A stretch of 64,000 bases of DNA. It comes from an uncultured Myxococcales bacterium (GTDB taxonomy: Bacteria; Myxococcota_A; Polyangia; Fen-1088). Both the position numbers and the translations under genes were made by a program. Positions 15,082-45,304 of the stretch are shown here, one piece after another (the stretch's first letter is position 1; every line of letters begins with the position of its first letter). The notes beneath the pieces were generated by a model, which saw only the letters and a list, made by a program, of their open reading frames with translations, had not been told where the DNA came from and ran no database searches. The stretch covers positions 10,047-74,046 of the forward strand of contig CAZYFU010000010.1 in NCBI GenBank assembly GCA_964647025.1, in the 5' to 3' direction.

Positions 15082-15352
15082 GATAGCAAAAGTCGAGCGA
15101 ACGTACAGAAGAACGCCGGTTGGTCCGTCCTGAGCCTTGTCCGCGCGGTCCTTGGACTTGTCGCGTGCGCGACCGGAAAACAGCGTGCACCGAGCGGTTC
15201 CGAACCTTCAAAAATCTGGAGGCCCGACTCTCGATATGCAAAAGACGAATGATTTGATAAGTCGGTTGCTCGAACCGAGGGCGTCGCGTGTTGTTACCGC
15301 TGGACTTCATTGTCCAGCCCCTTCACCATTGTCGGATTCAGGAGTTCACCAC

Positions 15353-16651
15353 ATGCGGTTTGGTGCAGTATCGACCATCACGTTGCTGTCCGCGGTTGCC
15401 TTCGTCGCCTGTTTTCCCAGCTCTCCGATGAAAGATCCGACGCCGGGTGACGGCGGGAGCAGCGGAAGCGGCGGTGCGTCCTCATCTTCGTCCTCCGGAG
15501 GTGCCCAGTCGAACGGTGGGTCGTCTTCCGGAGGGGCGTCCGCGTCGGGCGGCAGCGGTGGCGAGACCTCTGGCGGTGCTCAGGGCGGTGCCATGAGCCA
15601 GGGCGGTGCCACTTCGTCGGGCACGGCTGCCGCGGGCGGGGCCAAGCCCACCGGGGGAACGACGGCGATCGGCGGCAATACTGGCGCTGGCGGCGTGACT
15701 CCCGGAGGCGGAACCAACGCGGCCGGTGGCGCTTCCGCCAGCGATTGCACCGACGAGCCTCCGCCACAAACGCCGACGTGTGCAGATTGGGCCGCATGGA
15801 ACACCTGCAGCGCTGATTGGTTCAAGAACTACTGCAATCGCAGCTGTGGACGGTGCACGGGTGGCAGCAGCAACGGGGGCGCTGGCGGGGGACAGAGCCG
15901 GGGTGGCGCTGGCGGCGCGGGTGGCGTAAGCCAAGGCGGCGCGGGTGGCAGCGGTAACAGCGGCGGTGGCGGCGTGCCGGGACCAAGCACCACCAACCCG
16001 CAGATCTCGGGAACCAACGGCTGGGTCAGCCGATACTGGGACTGCTGCAAGCCGTCCTGCGCGTGGAACACCAACCTCAAGGCCTGTCAGAAAGACGGAA
16101 TGACGCGCGTATCGGACAGGAACATGGAGTCCGTTTGTAAGAACGGCGGCGCCTACCAGTGCTACGACCTGTCACCCTGGTACGACGCCAACACGAACAT
16201 GTCCTATGGCTTCGTGGCCCACGGCGGTGGGTGTGGCACCTGCTACCTTCTGCAGTTCACCGGATCCAGCCACAACGGTGGCAACAATGCCGGCTGCGGG
16301 GCGATCAAGGGGCAGCAGATGATCGTGCAGAAGATCAACGACGGCGGTGACGTCGGCGGCGAGCAGTTCGACCTGCTCGTGCCCGGCGGCGGCGTTGGGC
16401 AGTTCAACGGTTGCACCAACCAATGGGGCTCCTCGACCGACCTCGGCTCCCAGTACGGCGGGCTGCTTTCGTCGTGCAAGGCCGATCCCGGCTGCATGAA
16501 GCAGAAGTGCCAGTCCGTGTTCGGCAACATGCCCGCACTGCTCGCTGGCTGCAACTGGTTCACCAACTGGTACAGCTCGGCCGACAACCCGTCCGTGGTC
16601 TATAAGCAGGTCACCTGTCCGCCCGAGATCACCGCCAGAAGCGGAATGTAG
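15353..16651 (+). CDS. secreted glycoside hydrolase family 45 endoglucanase with N-terminal ShK-like Cys module and Gly/Ser-rich linkers
   Basis: Signal peptide MRFGAVSTITLLSAVAFVA, then a linker of about 100 aa (Gly/Ser/Ala/Thr-rich). Six-Cys module CTDEPPPQTPTCADWAAWNTCSADWFKNYCNRSCGRC (C-x3-C-x2-C tail, ShKT-like), then a second linker. GH45 catalytic domain with hallmark YWDCCKPSCAW (catalytic Asp), QFDLLVPGGGVGQFNGCTNQWG (second catalytic Asp in FDL) and SADNPSVVYKQVTCPPEITARSG, which closely parallel Humicola EGV motifs. ggag RBS 8 nt upstream of the ATG. Confidence 0.9.
   Translation: MRFGAVSTITLLSAVAFVACFPSSPMKDPTPGDGGSSGSGGASSSSSSGGAQSNGGSSSGGASASGGSGGETSGGAQGGAMSQGGATSSGTAAAGGAKPTGGTTAIGGNTGAGGVTPGGGTNAAGGASASDCTDEPPPQTPTCADWAAWNTCSADWFKNYCNRSCGRCTGGSSNGGAGGGQSRGGAGGAGGVSQGGAGGSGNSGGGGVPGPSTTNPQISGTNGWVSRYWDCCKPSCAWNTNLKACQKDGMTRVSDRNMESVCKNGGAYQCYDLSPWYDANTNMSYGFVAHGGGCGTCYLLQFTGSSHNGGNNAGCGAIKGQQMIVQKINDGGDVGGEQFDLLVPGGGVGQFNGCTNQWGSSTDLGSQYGGLLSSCKADPGCMKQKCQSVFGNMPALLAGCNWFTNWYSSADNPSVVYKQVTCPPEITARSGM
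15420..15740. repeat. GGC/GGT/AGC-rich low-complexity coding repeat (Gly/Ser/Ala/Thr linker of GH45 protein); a second shorter block lies at about 15860-16000
   Basis: Runs of ggcgg / agcgg / tcgtc triplets visible in the sequence, encoding the linker …GGSSGSGGASSSSSSGGAQSNGGSSSGGASASGGSGGETSGG…. The same linker type (Gly/Ser/Ala-rich) is found in the lipoprotein at 59.3-59.9 kb. Confidence 0.6.
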
Positions 16652-31009: not shown

Positions 31010-31066
31010 GGCCGGGGCTCGTCGAAGTGTTGCCGACTTCTGCCATCGTGATAGCGTGCGCAAATC

Positions 31067-31297
31067 ATGGCGAAGTCACCCTGCCCAATCTCCAAGTCGC
31101 AGTTCCTCGAGAAGGCCGAGGCGGTCAAGATCACCATCGGCGCGAACGAGCTCATCGCGGACAAGCGAGAGTTCTCCACTGGTTCGTTCGGTTGGTACTA
31201 CAACGGCAAGACGACCATCATGGTCGACGGCAAGCCGCTGTCCGTGCAGATCGGCATGAACCTGACCGTGGTCGGAAGCAAAGAGGCGGATCGCTGA
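31067..31297 (+). CDS. small hypothetical protein (76 aa)
   Basis: Very strong GC3 coding bias, a clean ORF, and it sits in a 290-nt gap between annotated genes. No recognisable motif (…GSFGWYYNGKTTIMVDGKPLSVQIGMNLTVVGSK). Confidence 0.5.
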   Translation: MAKSPCPISKSQFLEKAEAVKITIGANELIADKREFSTGSFGWYYNGKTTIMVDGKPLSVQIGMNLTVVGSKEADR

Positions 31298-31358: not shown

Positions 31359-32240
31359 CTAGCCCCCGGTTGGCACGACGAGTGCCATGGACAGGTATCC
31401 GGGACGGGCCTGTACCGCCACCGTGCCCGCGACCCGATTGGTTGCCGCGATGGTCGAGGTGACGACGACGGTGCCGGCCTTGATGTTGACGAATCCACCG
31501 GCGCCGGTGCCGTCGGTGGTAAGTGCGATACTCGACGGCAGGGAGTCCTGCAGCACGTAGCTGGTCGTCAGCTCGTCCACTTGCGGACTGGTGAGCATCA
31601 TCCCTGCCACGGGCTTGCCCCGACAGTCGAGGGCGGTGCTCATGACCACGGAGCGGTCAGGCGCCACATTCTGTCCACTGATCTGCGTGACCATGGTCCG
31701 GAAGAAGTTCGCCGGTACCATGGGAAGCTCGCTGGGCGCGCGCTGTTTGCGGGTATTCGGCGGGAAGAACATGGTCGGGTACACGCCGCCACCCTCGGTT
31801 TGGAAGTAGCCGTCGAAACCCACCGGCAACTCGACGACCAGTTGCCCGGCCTCGTTGCTTTGGAACTGGTTCAGCGGGAAATCGCAGTTGGCGTCGAGCT
31901 TCGCACACAGGGTGAGGCGCACGCCCGTTACCGGGTTCGTGCTCAGCAGGTCCGTCATGCTCATGGCCACCTGGACCGTCCCAGTTGGGACCTCGTCGAC
32001 CTCCGAGCGATCGAGGCAAGCCCAAGTGGGATCCGGCTGGCACATGGAATGGCTGCAGATGCTACCGGCGTAGGCAGGTCCGCGCGAGGTGCAGTCCCGG
32101 TCGGTCTTGCACTGTTCGCGATCGCTGTCGACGACGACGGTGCAAGCGGACAGGGCCGCGCCCGACGAAGCCAGGCACAAAGACAACAAGAGGCGGTATC
32201 GAATCATGGTGCACGCAGGGGCGAGAGGAGGTGTCGTCAT
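31359..32240 (-). CDS. hypothetical lipoprotein
   Basis: MIRYRLLLSLCLASSGAALSAC lipobox; the alternative start at the internal ATG 32207 gives a canonical signal peptide. Cys-rich N-terminal part (CKTDRDCTS...CSHSMCQPDPTWAC). Last gene of a three-gene minus-strand operon. Confidence 0.55.
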   Translation of the reverse strand: MTTPPLAPACTMIRYRLLLSLCLASSGAALSACTVVVDSDREQCKTDRDCTSRGPAYAGSICSHSMCQPDPTWACLDRSEVDEVPTGTVQVAMSMTDLLSTNPVTGVRLTLCAKLDANCDFPLNQFQSNEAGQLVVELPVGFDGYFQTEGGGVYPTMFFPPNTRKQRAPSELPMVPANFFRTMVTQISGQNVAPDRSVVMSTALDCRGKPVAGMMLTSPQVDELTTSYVLQDSLPSSIALTTDGTGAGGFVNIKAGTVVVTSTIAATNRVAGTVAVQARPGYLSMALVVPTGG

Positions 32241-32252
32241 GGTTGTGTCGAT

Positions 32253-38705: not shown

Positions 38706-39956
38706 ATGAGAACTGGCACCGCGGATTTGCCCCTGCATGGCGGGCGCGTGCCCATGTGGTTGGCCGCACGGATGGCGCGCCTTGGCCGGGTCATGGTCGA
38801 GGCACTCGTCATCGAGTACGGACGCGACGAGGTCTTGCGCCGACTGGCCGACCCCTTCTGGTTTCAGTCGCTCGGCTGCGTGATGGGGATGGACTGGCAT
38901 TCGTCGGGTATCACGACCAGCGTTCTCGGGGCGCTCAAGCGCGGGTTGGCCCCGGTGGAAGGCGAGCTCGGCATCCACGTTTGCGGCGGTCGAGGCCGAC
39001 ACTCCAGGCGCACCCCCGATGAGCTGCGCGCCCTGGGCGACAGGCTGTCCGTCGACGCCGCCGGCCTGGTGCGTGCGAGCCGCTTGGTCGCGAAGGTCGA
39101 CAGCGCGGCGGTGCAGGATGGCTTCGACCTGTACCTTCACGGCTTCATCGTCGCCGACGACGGGAAATGGGTCGTCGTCCAGCAGGGCATGAACCCGGCA
39201 AGACGCCAGGCGCGCCGCTACCACTGGCTCTGGGATCGCGCGGGCTCGTTCGTGGACCAGCCGCACTCGGCCATCGAGGGCGAGCCGGCACCCACGCCTA
39301 TCGTCAACCTCACGGATCGTGCGGCCGCGGCGTCGCGTCAACAAACCGTGGCGCTCGCGGTGTCGGATCCGGCCAAGGTCGTGGCTCAGGTCGAACGCGT
39401 GCTGGAAATGCCGAGCCACCATGACGTGCGCGCCGATAACCTCGATCTGCGCAGACTGGGGGCCGCGTTGCACGTGGCGGCGAAGCAGGGCCCGGCGACT
39501 TTTCCCGAGCTGCTCCTCACCCCCAACATCGGCCAGCGCACGCTGTTCGCGCTGGCGCTGGTGGCGGAGGTCTTGCACGGTGCGCCGTGTCGGTTTTCCG
39601 ACCCTGCGCGGTTCTCCTTTGCCCACGGAGGTAAGGACGGGCACCCGTTCCCGGTGCCGCTCAAGGTCTACGACGAGACGCTCGGAGCCCTTCGACGCGC
39701 CGTGGATGGCGCCAAGCTGGGTCAGACGGACAAGCTGGCTGCCCTACGAAAGCTGGACGAACAGTGCCGGTTGGCCGAACGGGCGGCCAGTGGGAGGGCG
39801 TTGCCCACCAGCCCGTCGATTGCGCTTGCGGCGGTGATCGCGCACGAACGGCGCGTCTCGCCGCAGTTGGGCGGCCGTACCTGCTCGGGCGGAGCAACAC
39901 GACCGCGTCAGTTGTCGCTCAGGTTTGGTCCCGGAGCGCCTTTACGAGAATCTTGA
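38706..39956 (+). CDS. DUF763-like conserved hypothetical protein
   Basis: N-terminus ...ADLPLHGGRVPMWLAARMARLG...DPFWFQSLGCVMGMDWHSSGITTSVLGALK recalls the DUF763 family. Follows the small protein after a 28-nt gap. Its 3' end overlaps the convergent flgM-like gene by 38 nt. Confidence 0.55.
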   Translation: MRTGTADLPLHGGRVPMWLAARMARLGRVMVEALVIEYGRDEVLRRLADPFWFQSLGCVMGMDWHSSGITTSVLGALKRGLAPVEGELGIHVCGGRGRHSRRTPDELRALGDRLSVDAAGLVRASRLVAKVDSAAVQDGFDLYLHGFIVADDGKWVVVQQGMNPARRQARRYHWLWDRAGSFVDQPHSAIEGEPAPTPIVNLTDRAAAASRQQTVALAVSDPAKVVAQVERVLEMPSHHDVRADNLDLRRLGAALHVAAKQGPATFPELLLTPNIGQRTLFALALVAEVLHGAPCRFSDPARFSFAHGGKDGHPFPVPLKVYDETLGALRRAVDGAKLGQTDKLAALRKLDEQCRLAERAASGRALPTSPSIALAAVIAHERRVSPQLGGRTCSGGATRPRQLSLRFGPGAPLRES

Positions 39957-40194
39957 GCGCGAGGCGTTGTGGGTGGACCTTGTACGTTCCCTCCGCGACC
40001 TGACGACGAAGCTCTTCCACTCGGATGCGCCGCGAAACCGACTCTGCGCTGGGCGTGGACGGCGCACTGAGTGGACCCCTGCGCACTTGTAGGTTGGTTG
40101 GTGCTGCCATGTACTCGAACATCGGCCCCTGTGAGAAATCCTTAAGAGGATCCGAGAGGTTTTTTCGACTTTTTCGAAAGTCGAACGATGGCAA
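39919..40194 (-). CDS. anti-sigma-28 factor FlgM-like protein
   Basis: 91 aa. The C-terminal RVEELRRQVAEGTYKVHPQRLALKILVKAL matches the FlgM sigma-binding helix pattern ([IV]..G.YKVD...IA..[IL]L). Located directly downstream of a FliA-type sigma factor gene. Confidence 0.5.
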   Translation of the reverse strand: MPSFDFRKSRKNLSDPLKDFSQGPMFEYMAAPTNLQVRRGPLSAPSTPSAESVSRRIRVEELRRQVAEGTYKVHPQRLALKILVKALRDQT

Positions 40195-40254: not shown

Positions 40255-41058
40255 CTACGCTGCGACGGCGTCTTCGATGTCCGACAGCGACTCGCGCAGG
40301 CGGCGCGTGGCTTCGCCGTGGATCTGACAGACGCGGGATTCGGTCACGCCGAGGATCTCGCCGATCTCCTTCAGGTTCATGTTCTCGCAGTAGTAGAGCG
40401 AGAGCACCTGCTGCATCTTCTCGGGCAGATCGTCGATGCCGGAGACCAAGTGCGCGAGCGCTTCCCGGTGCGCGGTGAGCTCGAAGGGATCGGGAGAGTT
40501 GTTGTCGCTCGTGCGTTCGAGGAAATCTGGACCCGCGTCGTCGATACCGACCACCGACGATCCGGAGAGCTTCTGCTGGCGGGTATACAGCTCGTCTACC
40601 CTGAGGCCGAGGGTCTCTGCGAGCTCGCCCTGGTCGGGCGTACGACCGAGTTGGGACTCGAGCTTGCGCGTCGCTTCACGCAGCTCGTTCGAGAGGCGCC
40701 GCATATCGCGAGAAAGCGTGTCGCGGGCGCGCAGGTCGTCGAGCATGGCGCCGCGGATGCGGAACTCGGCGAAGGCTTCGAAGCGATCGACGCGCTTGGG
40801 GTCGAAGCGCTCGGCAGCCTCCATGAGTCCGATCACGCCTGCCGAGACCAGATCGTCGATCTCGACGTGGGCTGGAAGGCGACGGGCGAGCCGACGCGCC
40901 ACCTTCTCGATGTACGGGAAGAACTTGGCCGCATACTCACGGCGTCGCGCTGCGAGCGCCTTCGGGGAAAGCTTGCGTTCACTGGTACGCTTCTTGGCCG
41001 CCTTGTGCGCTGCCGGCCGTCGTTGCTTACTTACCCGAGCTCGCTTCGCTTTTGGCAT
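40255..41058 (-). CDS. RNA polymerase sigma factor, FliA/WhiG (group 3, sigma-28-like) family
   Basis: Region 2 DDLVSAGVIGLMEAAERFDPKRVDRFEAFAEFRIRGAML. Region 4.2 LSLYYCENMNLKEIGEILGVTESRVCQIHGEATRRLRE, nearly identical in pattern to E. coli FliA. Lys/Arg-rich N-terminal extension of about 30 aa. Confidence 0.8.
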   Translation of the reverse strand: MPKAKRARVSKQRRPAAHKAAKKRTSERKLSPKALAARRREYAAKFFPYIEKVARRLARRLPAHVEIDDLVSAGVIGLMEAAERFDPKRVDRFEAFAEFRIRGAMLDDLRARDTLSRDMRRLSNELREATRKLESQLGRTPDQGELAETLGLRVDELYTRQQKLSGSSVVGIDDAGPDFLERTSDNNSPDPFELTAHREALAHLVSGIDDLPEKMQQVLSLYYCENMNLKEIGEILGVTESRVCQIHGEATRRLRESLSDIEDAVAA

Positions 41059-41070
41059 GCCGACCCGGTG

Positions 41071-41087
41071 TGCAGCCGCCGTGCCAG
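41071..41087 (-). promoter_or_regulatory. candidate sigma-54 (-24/-12) promoter element upstream of the FliA-type sigma factor gene
   Basis: The minus-strand sequence CTGGCACGGCGGCTGCA matches TGGCACG-N4-TTGCA with exact GG-N10-GC spacing (one mismatch, C for T at -14). It lies in the 186-nt intergenic region, 13 nt upstream of the annotated ATG. Confidence 0.3.
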
Positions 41088-41244
41088 GAAAGTGGACTCG
41101 CTAACCTGGCCAATATCCTGGCAGTTGTGACCCGGCCTCGACGGGATCGTCATCCGAATGACGTCATGAGGGGGATCGAACCGTCAAGCCACTGACGACT
41201 GCGAGGGAAAACGTGGCGCCAATGACGATCGGATCGGCAGGTGA

Positions 41245-42570
41245 TCAGGCCACGGTTCGGCGGCGCAGCTTCTCAACAAGGGTGGTGCGGTTCATGCCCA
41301 GCAATTCCGCGGCGCGGTTCTTGTTGCCGCCGGTTCGTTCCAACGCTTGACCGATCAAGCGGTCTTCGAGCTGGGTGAGTAGGAGTCGGAGATCCACGCC
41401 GTGAGGTGGTAGGTCTACGATTGCCGGACCAAGCGCCTTCACATCGGTGCGCAGACTGGCGGGCAGGTCGTACACAGTGACTCCGCGATCCTTGGCGGTG
41501 GTCACGAGATTTGCGACGACGTTTTCCAGTTGTCGTACGTTGCCGGGCCACGGGAACTCGCCGAGCCTGACCAGCACGTCGGGTGGCAAGGGCGGCGTCT
41601 CCCGACCGCGGAAGGTGTTGGCGGCGCGGCGGAAGTGCTCGACCAGGATCGGGATGTCCTCGAGGCGCTCGCGCAGCGGCGGGATCTCGATGGGAATGAT
41701 GTTGAGGCGGTAGTAGAGATCCTCGATGAACGAGCCTTCGCGTACCGCCTGTTCGAGGTTTCGGGTGGTGGCTGCGATGATGCGCACGTCCGCTCGTCTG
41801 CGACTCGCAGCGTCCCGGACCAGTCGCAGAAGGCCCACTTGGAGCTCGCGCGCGAGATTCGCGATCTCGTCGATGAAGAGGGTGCCGCGGAGTGCCTCCC
41901 CAAGCTTGCCTTGGCCGGTTGTCGGAGCCTCTTTGCCCGAGACATTGGGGGCGCCGAACATGTCTGTCGTGGTGAGCTTGTTCTCGCCGTTTGCCAGCCG
42001 TATGGCCACGAACGGTCCGTTGCGACGCGTACCGCACGCGTGGATCAAACGGGCAACGACCTCTTTGCCGGTGCCGTCTTCGCCGCGGATGAGGACGCTG
42101 GCGTCGGAGTCCGCGACCTGGTCGACCCGTTCGAGCACGACGTGCATGGCGGGATGCTCGCCAACCAAGGTCGCGCCGCTGGTCCGCAGCGGAGCAACGC
42201 CGCGTCCGCGCTCTGCCAAGGCACGCTCGATGACATCTCCGCAGACCTCGTCGTGGAAGGACTGCGGGATGAAGTCGACCGCGCCCATGCGAAACGCCGA
42301 GACGATCTCGCGCACCGTGCCCAGGGCCGCGCGGACCACGACCGGGATGGCCATCTTTCGCGCGTGAGCCGAGGCGACCACGTTGCGGACGGTCTCGCTT
42401 GGCAGTCCCAGCGAGATCACGCAAAGCTCGAACGTCTTCGATGAAAGGGCATCGAGCGCGCGCGTGGCGTTCTCCACGGCCAGGCATTCATAGCCGAGGG
42501 ACGCCACCACACGCGCGAGTGCTTCTCGCGCAGCTTTGTCGTCGTCGACGAGGAGAATCCGTATCTGCAT
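41245..42570 (-). CDS. NtrC-family response regulator (receiver + AAA+ sigma-54-interaction-type domain + Fis-type HTH) with degenerate GAFTGA loop
   Basis: ATG at 42570 with a gggagg RBS. Receiver domain MQIRILLVDDDKAAREALARV. AAA+ domain with Walker A GEDGTGKE and Walker B GTLFIDEI. In the ESELFGHEKGAFTGA position it reads TTDMFGAPNVSGKEAPTTG, so the GAFTGA motif is absent. C-terminal HTH LIGQALERTGGNKNRAAELLGMNRTTLVEKLRR. Confidence 0.8.
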   Translation of the reverse strand: MQIRILLVDDDKAAREALARVVASLGYECLAVENATRALDALSSKTFELCVISLGLPSETVRNVVASAHARKMAIPVVVRAALGTVREIVSAFRMGAVDFIPQSFHDEVCGDVIERALAERGRGVAPLRTSGATLVGEHPAMHVVLERVDQVADSDASVLIRGEDGTGKEVVARLIHACGTRRNGPFVAIRLANGENKLTTTDMFGAPNVSGKEAPTTGQGKLGEALRGTLFIDEIANLARELQVGLLRLVRDAASRRRADVRIIAATTRNLEQAVREGSFIEDLYYRLNIIPIEIPPLRERLEDIPILVEHFRRAANTFRGRETPPLPPDVLVRLGEFPWPGNVRQLENVVANLVTTAKDRGVTVYDLPASLRTDVKALGPAIVDLPPHGVDLRLLLTQLEDRLIGQALERTGGNKNRAAELLGMNRTTLVEKLRRRTVA

Positions 42571-42918: not shown

Positions 42919-43305
42919 TCAAGGCGAAAACAGCACGCCAGCCAGAATGACGCTCAGCGAGCCGGCGGCGAGACAGAGGATTACGGTGAGCGCGAAGTAG
43001 AGGACGGCGGTCGTGTACGCGCCGGATTGCAGGTAGCGGACGACATCGTGGTTGAAGCTGGAGTAGGTGGTGAGGCCCCCCATGAAGCCCGTGGTCAGCG
43101 TGAGCCTCAGCGCGGGAGAGAAGGCGGTGGTCCGCAGCGAGACCTGCATGACCAAGCCGATGAGGAAGCACCCGACCACGTTCACCAGCAACGTGCCGTA
43201 GGGGATGGCTCTGCCGAGACGCTCATCCGCCCAAAGGCCGACCAAATACCGAACGCCGGTTCCGATAGCACCGGCCAGGCAAATCCAAAACAGCTTGACC
43301 ATCAT
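42919..43305 (-). CDS. crcB: fluoride ion channel CrcB/Fluc
   Basis: MMVKLFWICLAGAIGTGVRYLVG...GTLLVNVVGCFLIG...TGFMGGLTTYSSF, the classic CrcB motifs. About 128 aa from the internal ATG. Confidence 0.8.
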   Translation of the reverse strand: MMVKLFWICLAGAIGTGVRYLVGLWADERLGRAIPYGTLLVNVVGCFLIGLVMQVSLRTTAFSPALRLTLTTGFMGGLTTYSSFNHDVVRYLQSGAYTTAVLYFALTVILCLAAGSLSVILAGVLFSP

Positions 43306-43429
43306 CAAAGGTCGGAAAAATGAAGGACGCAACCCTAACACGGCACCTCCCCGCCGACCACAGGGTTTGGTTTTGTGCCAACCGGAGGTTGACGTTAGGC
43401 TTTTCACAACTCAAAGTGCAGACAGGCTG

Positions 43430-45300
<1,871 letters not shown>

Positions 45301-45304
<4 letters not shown>

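Follow-up and report, generated by a model that had tools for sequence, protein, structure and literature searches.

A 64,000-nucleotide (nt) stretch of DNA from an uncultured Myxococcales bacterium (contig CAZYFU010000010.1; "the window" hereafter, meaning this stretch at its full length) carries, between positions 41071 and 41197 of its minus strand, what is probably a complete enhancer-dependent sigma-54 promoter, which would drive a transcription unit made up of a gene for a FliA/WhiG-family sigma factor and a gene for a FlgM-like anti-sigma candidate. This reading is built on a -24/-12 element and on two upstream dyads, both rare in the window, which are conserved in related loci together with the distance to the start codon of the sigma gene. 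A preliminary description of the window had singled out the -24/-12 element and had proposed a sigma cascade, in which the sigma factor and its FlgM-like partner are controlled by sigma-54 and an enhancer-binding protein (EBP), the adjacent upstream gene being named as an EBP gene. The sigma-54 part of this proposal stands as a fair reading of the locus, and the enhancer implies an EBP; the adjacent gene, however, probably does not encode the activator.

For comparison we used 81 loci: that of the window itself (WIN) and 80 others (L001 to L080) from metagenome-assembled genomes (MAGs) of Polyangia/Myxococcales, with one genome per species and with sigma cores that are 75 to 96% identical to that of the window. 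Within this set, WIN, L001 to L007, and L080 form the close clade of the window. Protein families were assigned with Pfam and with the cut-offs of NCBIfam, structural relatives were taken from the PDB, and RNA families from Rfam. The coordinates of all features are collected in Table 1.

A predicted sigma-54 promoter conserved in 81 loci

The minus strand at the promoter reads CTGGCACGGCGGCTGCA, and, in its wider context from 41100 to 41050, ...CACTTTCCTGGCACGGCGGCTGCACACCGGGTCGGCATGCCAAAA... This sequence holds the GG and GC doublets of a sigma-54 promoter at their canonical spacing and departs from the consensus TGGCACG-N4-TTGCA at a single base, a C for T at the first position of the -12 block, so that the match reported in the preliminary description proved correct in every detail. 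The T that the window seems to miss (CTGCA instead of TTGCA) is not conserved anywhere in the promoter family: in the set of 81 loci, the -12 block begins with C, G, or A and ends with A or T. The element is located, also as described before, in the non-coding 186-nt gap (41059..41244) that separates the stop codon of the upstream open reading frame (ORF; TGA at 41247..41245) from the ATG at 41058, and it lies on the same strand as the sigma gene and directly upstream of it.

Both the rarity of the pattern and its conservation argue against a chance match. TGGCACG-N4-YTGCW occurs exactly once on the two strands of the 64-kb window, with no further match when one mismatch is allowed, compared with a mean of 0.05 matches in 100 dinucleotide-preserving shuffles of the window searched on both strands (4 of the 100 contained any match). 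The more relaxed pattern TGGCA[CT]-N6-TGC[AT] is found just upstream of the orthologous sigma gene in 81 of 81 loci, and among the 82 matches on both strands of the 628 kb covered by these loci, 81 are at the promoter site. To obtain a gapped conservation profile, we aligned the region from -150 to +40 of all loci with MAFFT. Only five blocks are conserved at a threshold of at least 90%, namely, the two dyads, TGGCA.G, TGC, and the ATG, and the sequence between them varies, including the N6 spacers inside the dyads; the loci have thus diverged enough for conservation to be informative. In an ungapped profile anchored on the -24 element, all five bases of TGGCA in the -24 block and all three of TGC in the -12 block, and with them both doublets, are present in 100% of the loci, and the G that follows TGGCA[C/T] in 89%. 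The T that opens TGC lies 12 nt from the one that opens TGGCA in 81 of 81 loci, with variable bases in between. (For the dyads this ungapped profile was set aside in favor of the MAFFT profile, since offsets of ±1 nt blurred them.) The set of conserved bases coincides exactly with the one by which sigma-54 promoters are defined, and the reading of the predicted element as such a promoter is strongly supported by this comparison.

It could still be argued that TGGCA-N7-TGC serves as an operator for a different DNA- or RNA-binding factor or that the match in the window is fortuitous, given that sigma-54 binding is predicted here and that rpoN is not in the window. We regard this as highly improbable. 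Chance is ruled out by the shuffles and by the conservation in all loci, and an unrelated operator would have to reproduce the determinants of sigma-54 recognition and their fixed 12-nt spacing while leaving the bases in between free. The element also sits at the classic distance below tandem dyads and adjoins an EBP-family gene whose product is canonical in 25 loci, and a search of the gap against Rfam for known RNA elements gave no match at E <= 1. Neither a sigma-70-like promoter nor an intrinsic terminator was predicted in the gap.

Two tandem dyads form the putative enhancer

The two upstream dyads (upstream activator sequences UAS1 and UAS2) are perfect CGTCA-N6-TGACG palindromes whose centers are 34 bp apart. 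They are the only exact copies of this pattern in the 64 kb, compared with 0.10 expected, and none of the shuffles contained two copies. Dyads with at most one mismatch are found at -111/-112 and -77/-78 in 79 of the 81 loci, with conserved arms and free spacers. Their centers lie approximately 95 and 130 bp upstream of the predicted transcription start, which is the usual position of EBP sites and falls within the range of approximately 70 to 150 bp expected of the upstream activator sites of a sigma-54 promoter. A third, degenerate dyad farther upstream is only weakly indicated in the window; a better copy is present at -141 in L003, L004, L006, and L007. A further block between UAS2 and the -24 element was considered as a general element of the promoter and rejected, as it is conserved in the close clade only and not across the 81 loci; it could be a DNA-bending site or the site of a second regulator. 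No autoregulatory dyads and no second sigma-54 promoter were found upstream of the EBP-like gene, either in the window or in the other loci.

The sigma factor mRNA is predicted to be leaderless

In the window, 13 nt lie between the -12 GC and the ATG at 41058, in agreement with the distance of about 13 nt given in the preliminary description. This distance hardly changes among the loci: it is 13 nt in 31 of them, 14 nt in 44, 15 nt in four, and 17 and 20 nt in one each, so that 75 of the 81 fall at 13 to 14 nt and 79 at 13 to 15 nt. The start codon is an in-frame ATG, open through to sigma region 2, in 81 of 81 loci and never GTG or TTG. In the locus with the 20-nt gap (L019), the first ATG is mutated (CATACC) and the next Met is used. 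A Shine-Dalgarno (SD)-like 4-mer is present in 10 of the 81 loci at no fixed place, and the stretch between the -12 element and the ATG is too short for an SD sequence.

By convention the GC of a sigma-54 promoter is given the positions -13/-12 or, in the nifH promoters of structural studies, -14/-13, which puts the first transcribed base 11 to 13 nt after the C. Transcription of the sigma gene would accordingly start at 41061 to 41059, or at the A at 41058 if the preference for a pyrimidine at -1 and a purine at +1 decides; the C that precedes the ATG in 77 of the 81 loci fits the latter rule. The resulting 5' untranslated region (UTR) of 0 to 3 nt falls within the working definition of a leaderless mRNA as one whose 5' UTR is at most 5 nt long (PMC12754779). 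That the distance from the -12 element to the ATG is held at 13 to 14 nt throughout the class is the strongest argument that transcription starts there, since nothing else explains it. A leaderless sigma factor mRNA is thus the best-supported interpretation of the conserved geometry.

The preliminary description had left the choice between a leaderless or very short-leader transcript and a start codon farther downstream, which would restore an ordinary leader. The former is favored by the near-fixed position of the ATG and the lack of a conserved SD sequence. To the latter, suggested by how unusually near the -12 element is to the annotated ATG, we give next to no chance. The sigma frame is open from 41100, with no ATG, GTG, or TTG ahead of the one at 41058, and the next possible start is codon 53 (GTG), which already lies inside region 2, as Pfam places the beginning of this domain at residue 52. 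With no in-frame start between 41058 and codon 53, the ATG in frame at every locus, and a Lys/Arg-rich N-terminal peptide retained in all of them, a downstream start codon is ruled out.

The neighboring EBP-like gene keeps its DNA-binding domain and has lost the sigma-54 contact loop

The gene upstream of the gap was called an EBP gene in the preliminary description. This is accurate as regards its domains, which are those of the NtrC family (Pfam Response_reg, Sigma54_activat, AAA_lid_14, and HTH_8), but not as regards its competence, as the protein of the window appears unfit to be an activator. The ORF most plausibly starts at the ATG at 42570, which is preceded by GGGAGG. Its AAA+ domain is well preserved (PF00158, E = 3e-42), with the motifs GEDGTGKE (Walker A), TLFIDEI (Walker B), FIEDLYYRLN, and WPGNVRQLEN and with the R-finger, sensor I, and sensor II retained, and its C terminus holds a Fis-type helix-turn-helix (HTH) domain (HTH_8, E = 4.9e-14). 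GAFTGA, however, is missing: the L1 loop reads FGAPNVSGKEAPTTGQ, a segment that aligns with the GAFTGA loop of Aquifex NtrC1 and of FleQ and with the GAFTGA-less stretch of NtrX, and the best PDB match of the protein is Brucella NtrX (5m7n), itself a GAFTGA-less member of the NtrC family. The receiver domain is degenerate as well, with Ser in place of the phospho-acceptor Asp, Ala in place of Thr/Ser, and Gln in place of Lys, as judged against NtrX and NtrC1. The Ser is common to the window's clade, and distant clades have the Asp.

In 78 of the 81 loci, the gene next upstream, on the same strand as the sigma gene, belongs to the EBP family, and these neighbors are found in every stage of preservation. 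In 25 of them, GAFTGA is intact together with the phospho-acceptor Asp, Walker A and B, and the R-finger; seven carry near variants (GAFTDA, GAYTGA, GAFSDA, GAFGGA, GAFPGA, and GAFTDV), 33 have no recognizable GAFTGA motif, and 13 are partial or lack the AAA+ domain. The 25 intact proteins indicate that genuine sigma-54 activators belong to the family and that sigma-54 is in use in these lineages. Parsimony on a neighbor-joining tree of the sigma cores suggests that GAFTGA is ancestral and was lost independently at least three times. One old loss is shared by the whole superclade of the window, and decay has gone further within it: the window's clade (the close clade as defined above) additionally lost the Asp, in L012 to L023 the DE of Walker B has become DD, and in one subclade (L008, L011, L025, and L077) the entire AAA+ domain is deleted in frame, which leaves a receiver-HTH protein of approximately 150 amino acids (see Table 1 for L008).

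The DNA-binding end of these proteins follows a different course. Across the 81 loci, the recognition region of the HTH, GGNKNRAAELLGMNRTTLVEKLRR, hardly varies, and cross-clade identity amounts to 85 to 100% in the HTH domain, compared with approximately 30 to 40% in the receiver and approximately 50% in the AAA+ domain. As the invariance of the HTH parallels that of the dyads, we infer that the EBP-like family binds to them. The window's protein would thus still bind the dyads and yet be unable to remodel the sigma-54 holoenzyme.

It is tempting to ask whether the neighbor might nevertheless activate the promoter itself, as an unconventional sigma-54 activator that works without GAFTGA through its divergent L1 loop or some other surface. 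Its Walker A and B motifs, sensor I, R-finger, and sensor II are intact, its HTH is invariant, and the ORF is uninterrupted and 70 to 86% identical among close relatives, which implies purifying selection. The L1 segment itself does not behave like a contact surface, though. Among close relatives its 16 residues read FGAPNVSGKEAPTTGQ, FGSQHASPRGTSVASV, LGSASSSDGPG-PGPG, or FGGPSASDNGFTKEGP, and WIN and L001 share only approximately 3 of the 16 while the AAA+ domains of the clade are 71 to 82% identical, so that this hypervariable loop cannot be a constrained surface. Moreover, sister clades have lost Walker B (DE replaced by DD, EE, or EA) or the entire AAA+ domain and kept the promoter, and the GAFTGA-less regulators NtrX and VpsR do not work with sigma-54 (for VpsR, PMC6158489). 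We therefore hold activation by the neighbor to be very unlikely.

A model with an activator encoded elsewhere

With neither GAFTGA nor the phospho-acceptor Asp in the neighboring protein, the activator of the window's promoter is probably encoded elsewhere in the genome. The promoter, the dyads, and the distance from the -12 element to the ATG are conserved equally well in clades whose neighbor lacks GAFTGA, which argues that the promoter is still fired there. In six loci (L038, L040, L042, L056, L062, and L064) the neighbor retains neither L1 loop nor HTH, and both dyads persist with varying spacers, so that another protein must bind there, in this clade at least.

The same decay of the neighbor could be taken to mean that the promoter is orphaned or poised, i.e., that the clade has no activator at all, that sigma-54 holoenzyme still binds the -24/-12 element, that its closed complex and the neighbor on the dyads act only as a brake or roadblock, and that the sigma gene is expressed by read-through or from an unrecognized promoter. 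The lack of GAFTGA and of the phospho-acceptor in the window's neighbor, the complete deletion of the AAA+ domain in L008, L011, L025, and L077, and the lack of a predicted terminator between the EBP-like gene and the sigma gene all agree with this idea. Against it, the -24/-12 element, the dyads, and the 13- to 14-nt distance are kept as strictly in GAFTGA-less clades as in GAFTGA-bearing ones, and the constraint on this distance would have no meaning unless transcription started there; the ATG of a read-through mRNA would be without a conserved SD sequence; no sigma-70-like promoter was found in the gap; and the dyads that outlive the neighbor's HTH in the six loci named above point to a binder encoded in trans. 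An orphaned promoter thus seems unlikely to us.

On balance, we consider it likely that the region from 41071 to 41197 is a complete, enhancer-dependent sigma-54 promoter that works as follows. Sigma-54 holoenzyme would bind TGGCACG-N4-CTGCA as a closed complex, and the two CGTCA-N6-TGACG dyads would be occupied by one or more dimeric proteins of the Fis-type HTH kind. An AAA+ activator with an intact GAFTGA motif, assembled at the dyads or recruited to them, would open the complex by ATP hydrolysis. Transcription would begin at the AUG or 1 to 3 nt before it and yield a leaderless sigma mRNA that is translated without an SD sequence, and the sigma factor, restrained by the cotranscribed FlgM-like protein, would then redirect RNA polymerase in a cascade from sigma-54 to a sigma-28-family factor. 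The ancestral activator would have been the product of the gene immediately upstream. In the window this neighbor, with its ATPase motifs and HTH kept, would most likely be a modulator on the dyads, either as a competitor or as a dominant-negative partner in mixed oligomers, and in the most economical model a GAFTGA-bearing EBP of the same DNA specificity, encoded in trans, would supply activation.

A candidate model for such a trans-acting protein came from a search for paralogs, which was largely uninformative because the query was the 52-amino-acid HTH alone and returned only short proteins, mostly fragments. One hit, P0139 (L081), was discarded as a paralog, as it is a frameshift-split copy of the same sigma locus. 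Another, P0156 (L082), turned out to be the C-terminal piece of a full-length NtrC-type EBP in a neighborhood without a sigma gene. This EBP has the phospho-acceptor Asp, GSFTGA, and intact Walker A and B motifs, and its recognition helix, GGNKNRAAELLGLNRTTLVEKLRR, differs from that of the window's protein by one M-to-L substitution. It is 45 to 50% identical to all GAFTGA-bearing neighbor EBPs and may be either a paralog in a genome that carries the sigma locus as well or a displaced ortholog; we treat it as a lead only.

Several points weigh against the model. The locus has a single EBP-family gene, whose product is unable to make the canonical GAFTGA contact, so that an activator must be postulated, and neither rpoN nor a second EBP gene was found among the approximately 34 ORFs scanned in the 64-kb window. 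As no terminator follows the upstream gene, read-through could be an additional source of sigma mRNA. With regard to the leaderless transcript, canonical numbering sets the start 1 to 3 nt ahead of the AUG rather than exactly on it, and short 5' extensions lower the translation of leaderless mRNAs in Escherichia coli. Furthermore, the literature searched yielded no published case of a leaderless mRNA made from a sigma-54 promoter.

Extended to the class, the model would describe a Polyangia-wide module in which an obligately leaderless, enhancer-dependent sigma mRNA encodes one half of a FliA/FlgM pair, a repeatedly decayed cis activator serves as a dominant-negative protein or anti-activator, and a trans-encoded EBP with the same recognition helix activates. 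We offer this wider version tentatively, as a possibility that we would not yet expect to hold in full.

The sigma factor and its FlgM-like partner

The product of the sigma gene passes the cut-offs of two NCBIfam models, NF005413 (FliA; 231.4 bits versus a cut-off of 201) and TIGR02479 (FliA_WhiG; 228.8 bits versus 189.6). The name FliA-type sigma factor used in the preliminary description is therefore justified at the level of the family but not beyond it, because there is no flagellar gene among the approximately 34 ORFs scanned in the window. Myxococcota are classically a nonflagellated phylum, and the literature searched gave no direct precedent for FliA or flagella in it. Promoters of the sigma-28 type follow a pattern like TAAA-N15-GCCGATAA. 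Homologs of the sigma factor that are 75 to 99% identical to it are abundant in metagenomes, and those with names are assigned to uncultured Myxococcales, Polyangia, or "Deltaproteobacteria." The protein begins with a basic tail that is kept in 81 of 81 orthologs, with variable sequence and with a length of 59 to 155 residues before the anchor; it is longest in L026, L030, and L072.

Downstream of the sigma gene, the FlgM-like ORF scores 32.7 bits against Pfam FlgM (cut-off, 25) and stays under the cut-off of TIGR03824. Its C-terminal motif, RVEELRR.VA.G.Y.V.P..LA.KIL, is encoded directly downstream of the sigma gene in 74 of 78 loci, as would be expected of a cognate FlgM-type anti-sigma factor, and it is this linkage that makes control of the pair by sigma-54 a fair reading. 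At its 3' end the ORF overlaps by 38 nt (39919..39956) with the 3' end of a convergent DUF763 gene, and no terminator was predicted between the two.

Two loci of the set are second, more divergent sigma copies: L041, from the same MAG as L007, and L079, from the same MAG as L060. TGGCACG-N5-TGC and the usual spacing to an ATG are kept in both. Dyads and an upstream EBP-like gene are absent from L041, and a single imperfect dyad is present in L079. The two copies may represent sigma paralogs whose control region has been reduced.

Table 1. Coordinates of the features discussed (positions in the window unless a locus is named)
Feature	Position	Strand	Remarks
Enhancer dyad 1 (UAS1), CGTCAGTGGCTTGACG	41182..41197	-	Starts 111 nt upstream of the T of TGGCAC
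Enhancer dyad 2 (UAS2), CGTCATTCGGATGACG	41148..41163	-	Starts 77 nt upstream of the T of TGGCAC
Degenerate third dyad, CGTCATTGGCGCCACG	41212..41227	-	Two mismatches in the right arm; weak evidence
Block between UAS2 and -24, TGCCAGGATATTGGCCAGGTTAGC	41100..41123	-	Similar in WIN, L001 to L007, and L080
Sigma-54 -24 element, TGGCACG (predicted)	41080..41086	-	GG at 41085-41084; TGGCA invariant; G at position 7 in 89% of the 81 loci
N4 spacer, GCGG	41076..41079	-	Between the -24 and -12 blocks
Sigma-54 -12 element, CTGCA (predicted)	41071..41075	-	GC at 41073-41072; TGC invariant in the 81 loci
Predicted transcription start zone	41058..41061	-	5' UTR of 0 to 3 nt; inferred from canonical sigma-54 geometry
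ATG start codon of the sigma gene	41056..41058	-	Only in-frame ATG/GTG/TTG between the upstream stop and region 2
FliA/WhiG-family sigma gene	40255..41058	-	267 amino acids; Pfam Sigma70 r2/r3/r4; NCBIfam cut-offs passed
Lys/Arg-rich N-terminal extension, MPKAKRARVSKQRRPAAHKAAKKRTSERKLSPK...	40939..41058	-	Approximately 40 amino acids ahead of region 2
FlgM-like anti-sigma candidate	39919..40194	-	91 amino acids (longest ORF); 60 nt downstream of the sigma stop
Degenerate NtrC-family gene	41245..42570	-	441 amino acids; pseudo-receiver, AAA+ without GAFTGA, Fis-type HTH
AAA+-less neighbor in L008	L008 3318..3815		First ~75 (pseudo)receiver residues fused in frame to the C-terminal HTH; dyads and promoter intact
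NtrC-type EBP in L082	L082 2830..4216		Split by two frameshifts in a long-read assembly; spurious minus-strand ORFs called over the gene
DUF763 gene	38706..39956	+	Pfam E = 1.6e-122
Fused NuoE-NuoF	43205..45304	+	699 amino acids; NuoE-type 2Fe-2S thioredoxin-like domain and NuoF FMN and 4Fe-4S domains
ORF with C-terminal glycosyl hydrolase family 45 domain	15134..16651	+	Pfam E = 1e-35

Other features of the window

The G+C content of the window is 62 to 69% throughout, and its remaining genes have housekeeping functions (Lon, ClpB, a class A penicillin-binding protein, Nuo subunits, UvrC, S41 proteases, acyl-CoA dehydrogenase, and others). A fused NuoE-NuoF gene is conserved beside the sigma locus in 24 related loci; in the window its 5' part overlaps a CrcB-like ORF on the other strand, so that its true start is probably internal. 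One ORF ends in a domain of glycosyl hydrolase family 45, a family found mostly in fungi and animals and uncommon in bacteria. At 31371..31387, the sequence TGGCACGACGAGTGCCA forms a near-perfect palindrome, TGGCAC-N5-GTGCCA, that gives a weak -24/-12-like match on both strands. It is located at the 3' end of an ORF (31359..32252, minus strand) and near the end of a convergent one (31055..31297, plus strand), and it is more likely to be an operator or a hairpin than a promoter.

Implications and comparison with known systems

Sigma-54 promoters, enhancer dyads, and cascades from sigma-54 to sigma-28 are textbook matter, and at that level the window offers an ordinary, yet unusually well-supported, prediction. 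It would depart from the known kind in three respects: the sigma-54 transcript is predicted to be leaderless; a cis-encoded activator that lacks GAFTGA and the phospho-acceptor Asp stands beside an enhancer and a promoter that have remained frozen; and the sigma/anti-sigma pair occurs in a classically nonflagellated phylum, and no flagellar gene was found around it among the ORFs scanned. If the transcript is indeed leaderless, translational control through the 5' UTR would be removed and synthesis of the sigma factor would be tied strictly to activation at the enhancer. The neighboring genes would in turn amount to a natural experiment in EBP evolution, in which the contact with sigma-54 is predicted to go first, followed by the phospho-switch, the ATPase motifs, or the AAA+ domain, with DNA binding alone kept, and this series of decay offers a testable route from activators to anti-activators. 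Finally, the module draws attention to a highly conserved FliA/FlgM-like pair (75 to 99% identity) in uncultured myxobacteria.

The logic of the cascade has a counterpart in Vibrio cholerae, where FlrA and sigma-54 reportedly activate the class II genes, including fliA (a finding attributed to Prouty, Correa, and Klose, 2001). As in the window, sigma-54 and an NtrC-family activator are placed above a sigma-28-family factor with a FlgM partner. The V. cholerae system is a flagellar regulon with a GAFTGA-bearing FlrA and with mRNAs that have leaders, whereas the window, where no flagellar gene was found among the ORFs scanned, has a degenerate cis-encoded EBP and a transcript predicted to lack a leader. 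An alternative sigma factor under sigma-54 is also known from Borrelia burgdorferi, in whose Rrp2-RpoN-RpoS pathway sigma-54 controls rpoS (PMC3037356 and PMC1976401). The arrangement resembles that of the window in that a -24/-12 element lies directly upstream of the alternative sigma gene and an NtrC-like EBP activates it; it differs in that the downstream sigma factor is RpoS rather than a member of the FliA/WhiG family, and in that the enhancer is the best-conserved feature in the window. We know of no tandem dyad enhancer of the window's type described for Borrelia rpoS.

For the degenerate neighbor, the closest parallels are NtrX and VpsR of V. cholerae, the latter likewise a GAFTGA-less regulator of the NtrC family (PMC6158489); both share with the window's protein a receiver-like domain, an AAA+ domain without the sigma-54 contact loop, and a Fis-type HTH. 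In Legionella, an EBP-family protein likewise acts on fliA without sigma-54, as fliA is FleQ dependent and RpoN independent (PMC5655016). These proteins act at promoters of the sigma-70 type, whereas the presumed sites of the window's protein form the enhancer of a strictly conserved predicted sigma-54 promoter with no sigma-70-like promoter detectable, and its receiver has lost the phospho-acceptor too.

A FliA/WhiG-family sigma factor with a dedicated anti-sigma factor and a nonflagellar role is found in the WhiG-RsiG pair of Streptomyces (PMC7005675 and PMC12871210). What the two systems have in common is the sigma family and the dedicated anti-sigma factor; nonflagellar use and a developmentally complex host are features of Streptomyces, and the anti-sigma factor there is RsiG with cyclic di-GMP, in contrast to the FlgM-like protein of the window. 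To our knowledge, whiG is not sigma-54 dependent, and Actinobacteria lack sigma-54.

The control region itself is most like those described for Myxococcus xanthus, a species of the same phylum for which sigma-54 is vital (PMC12754779). Leaderless mRNAs occur in myxobacteria, and tandem-dyad enhancers beside a regulator gene are typical of their sigma-54 promoters (PMC12754779). Upstream of validated sigma-54 promoters, the M. xanthus protein PexR, a bacterial EBP, has been shown by experiment to recognize tandem dyads of 5-n6-5 geometry (CACCG-n6-CGGTG; PMC12754779). The dyads of the window have a different sequence (CGTCA-N6-TGACG), and PexR, unlike the window's neighbor, has a GAF sensor and intact determinants for the contact with sigma-54. 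The katB and ahpC promoters that PexR controls nevertheless share with the window the tandem 5-n6-5 palindromes upstream of the -24/-12 element and the adjacent regulator gene, and PexR can act negatively when bound in its resting state (PMC12754779), a further likeness to the role proposed here for the window's EBP-like protein.

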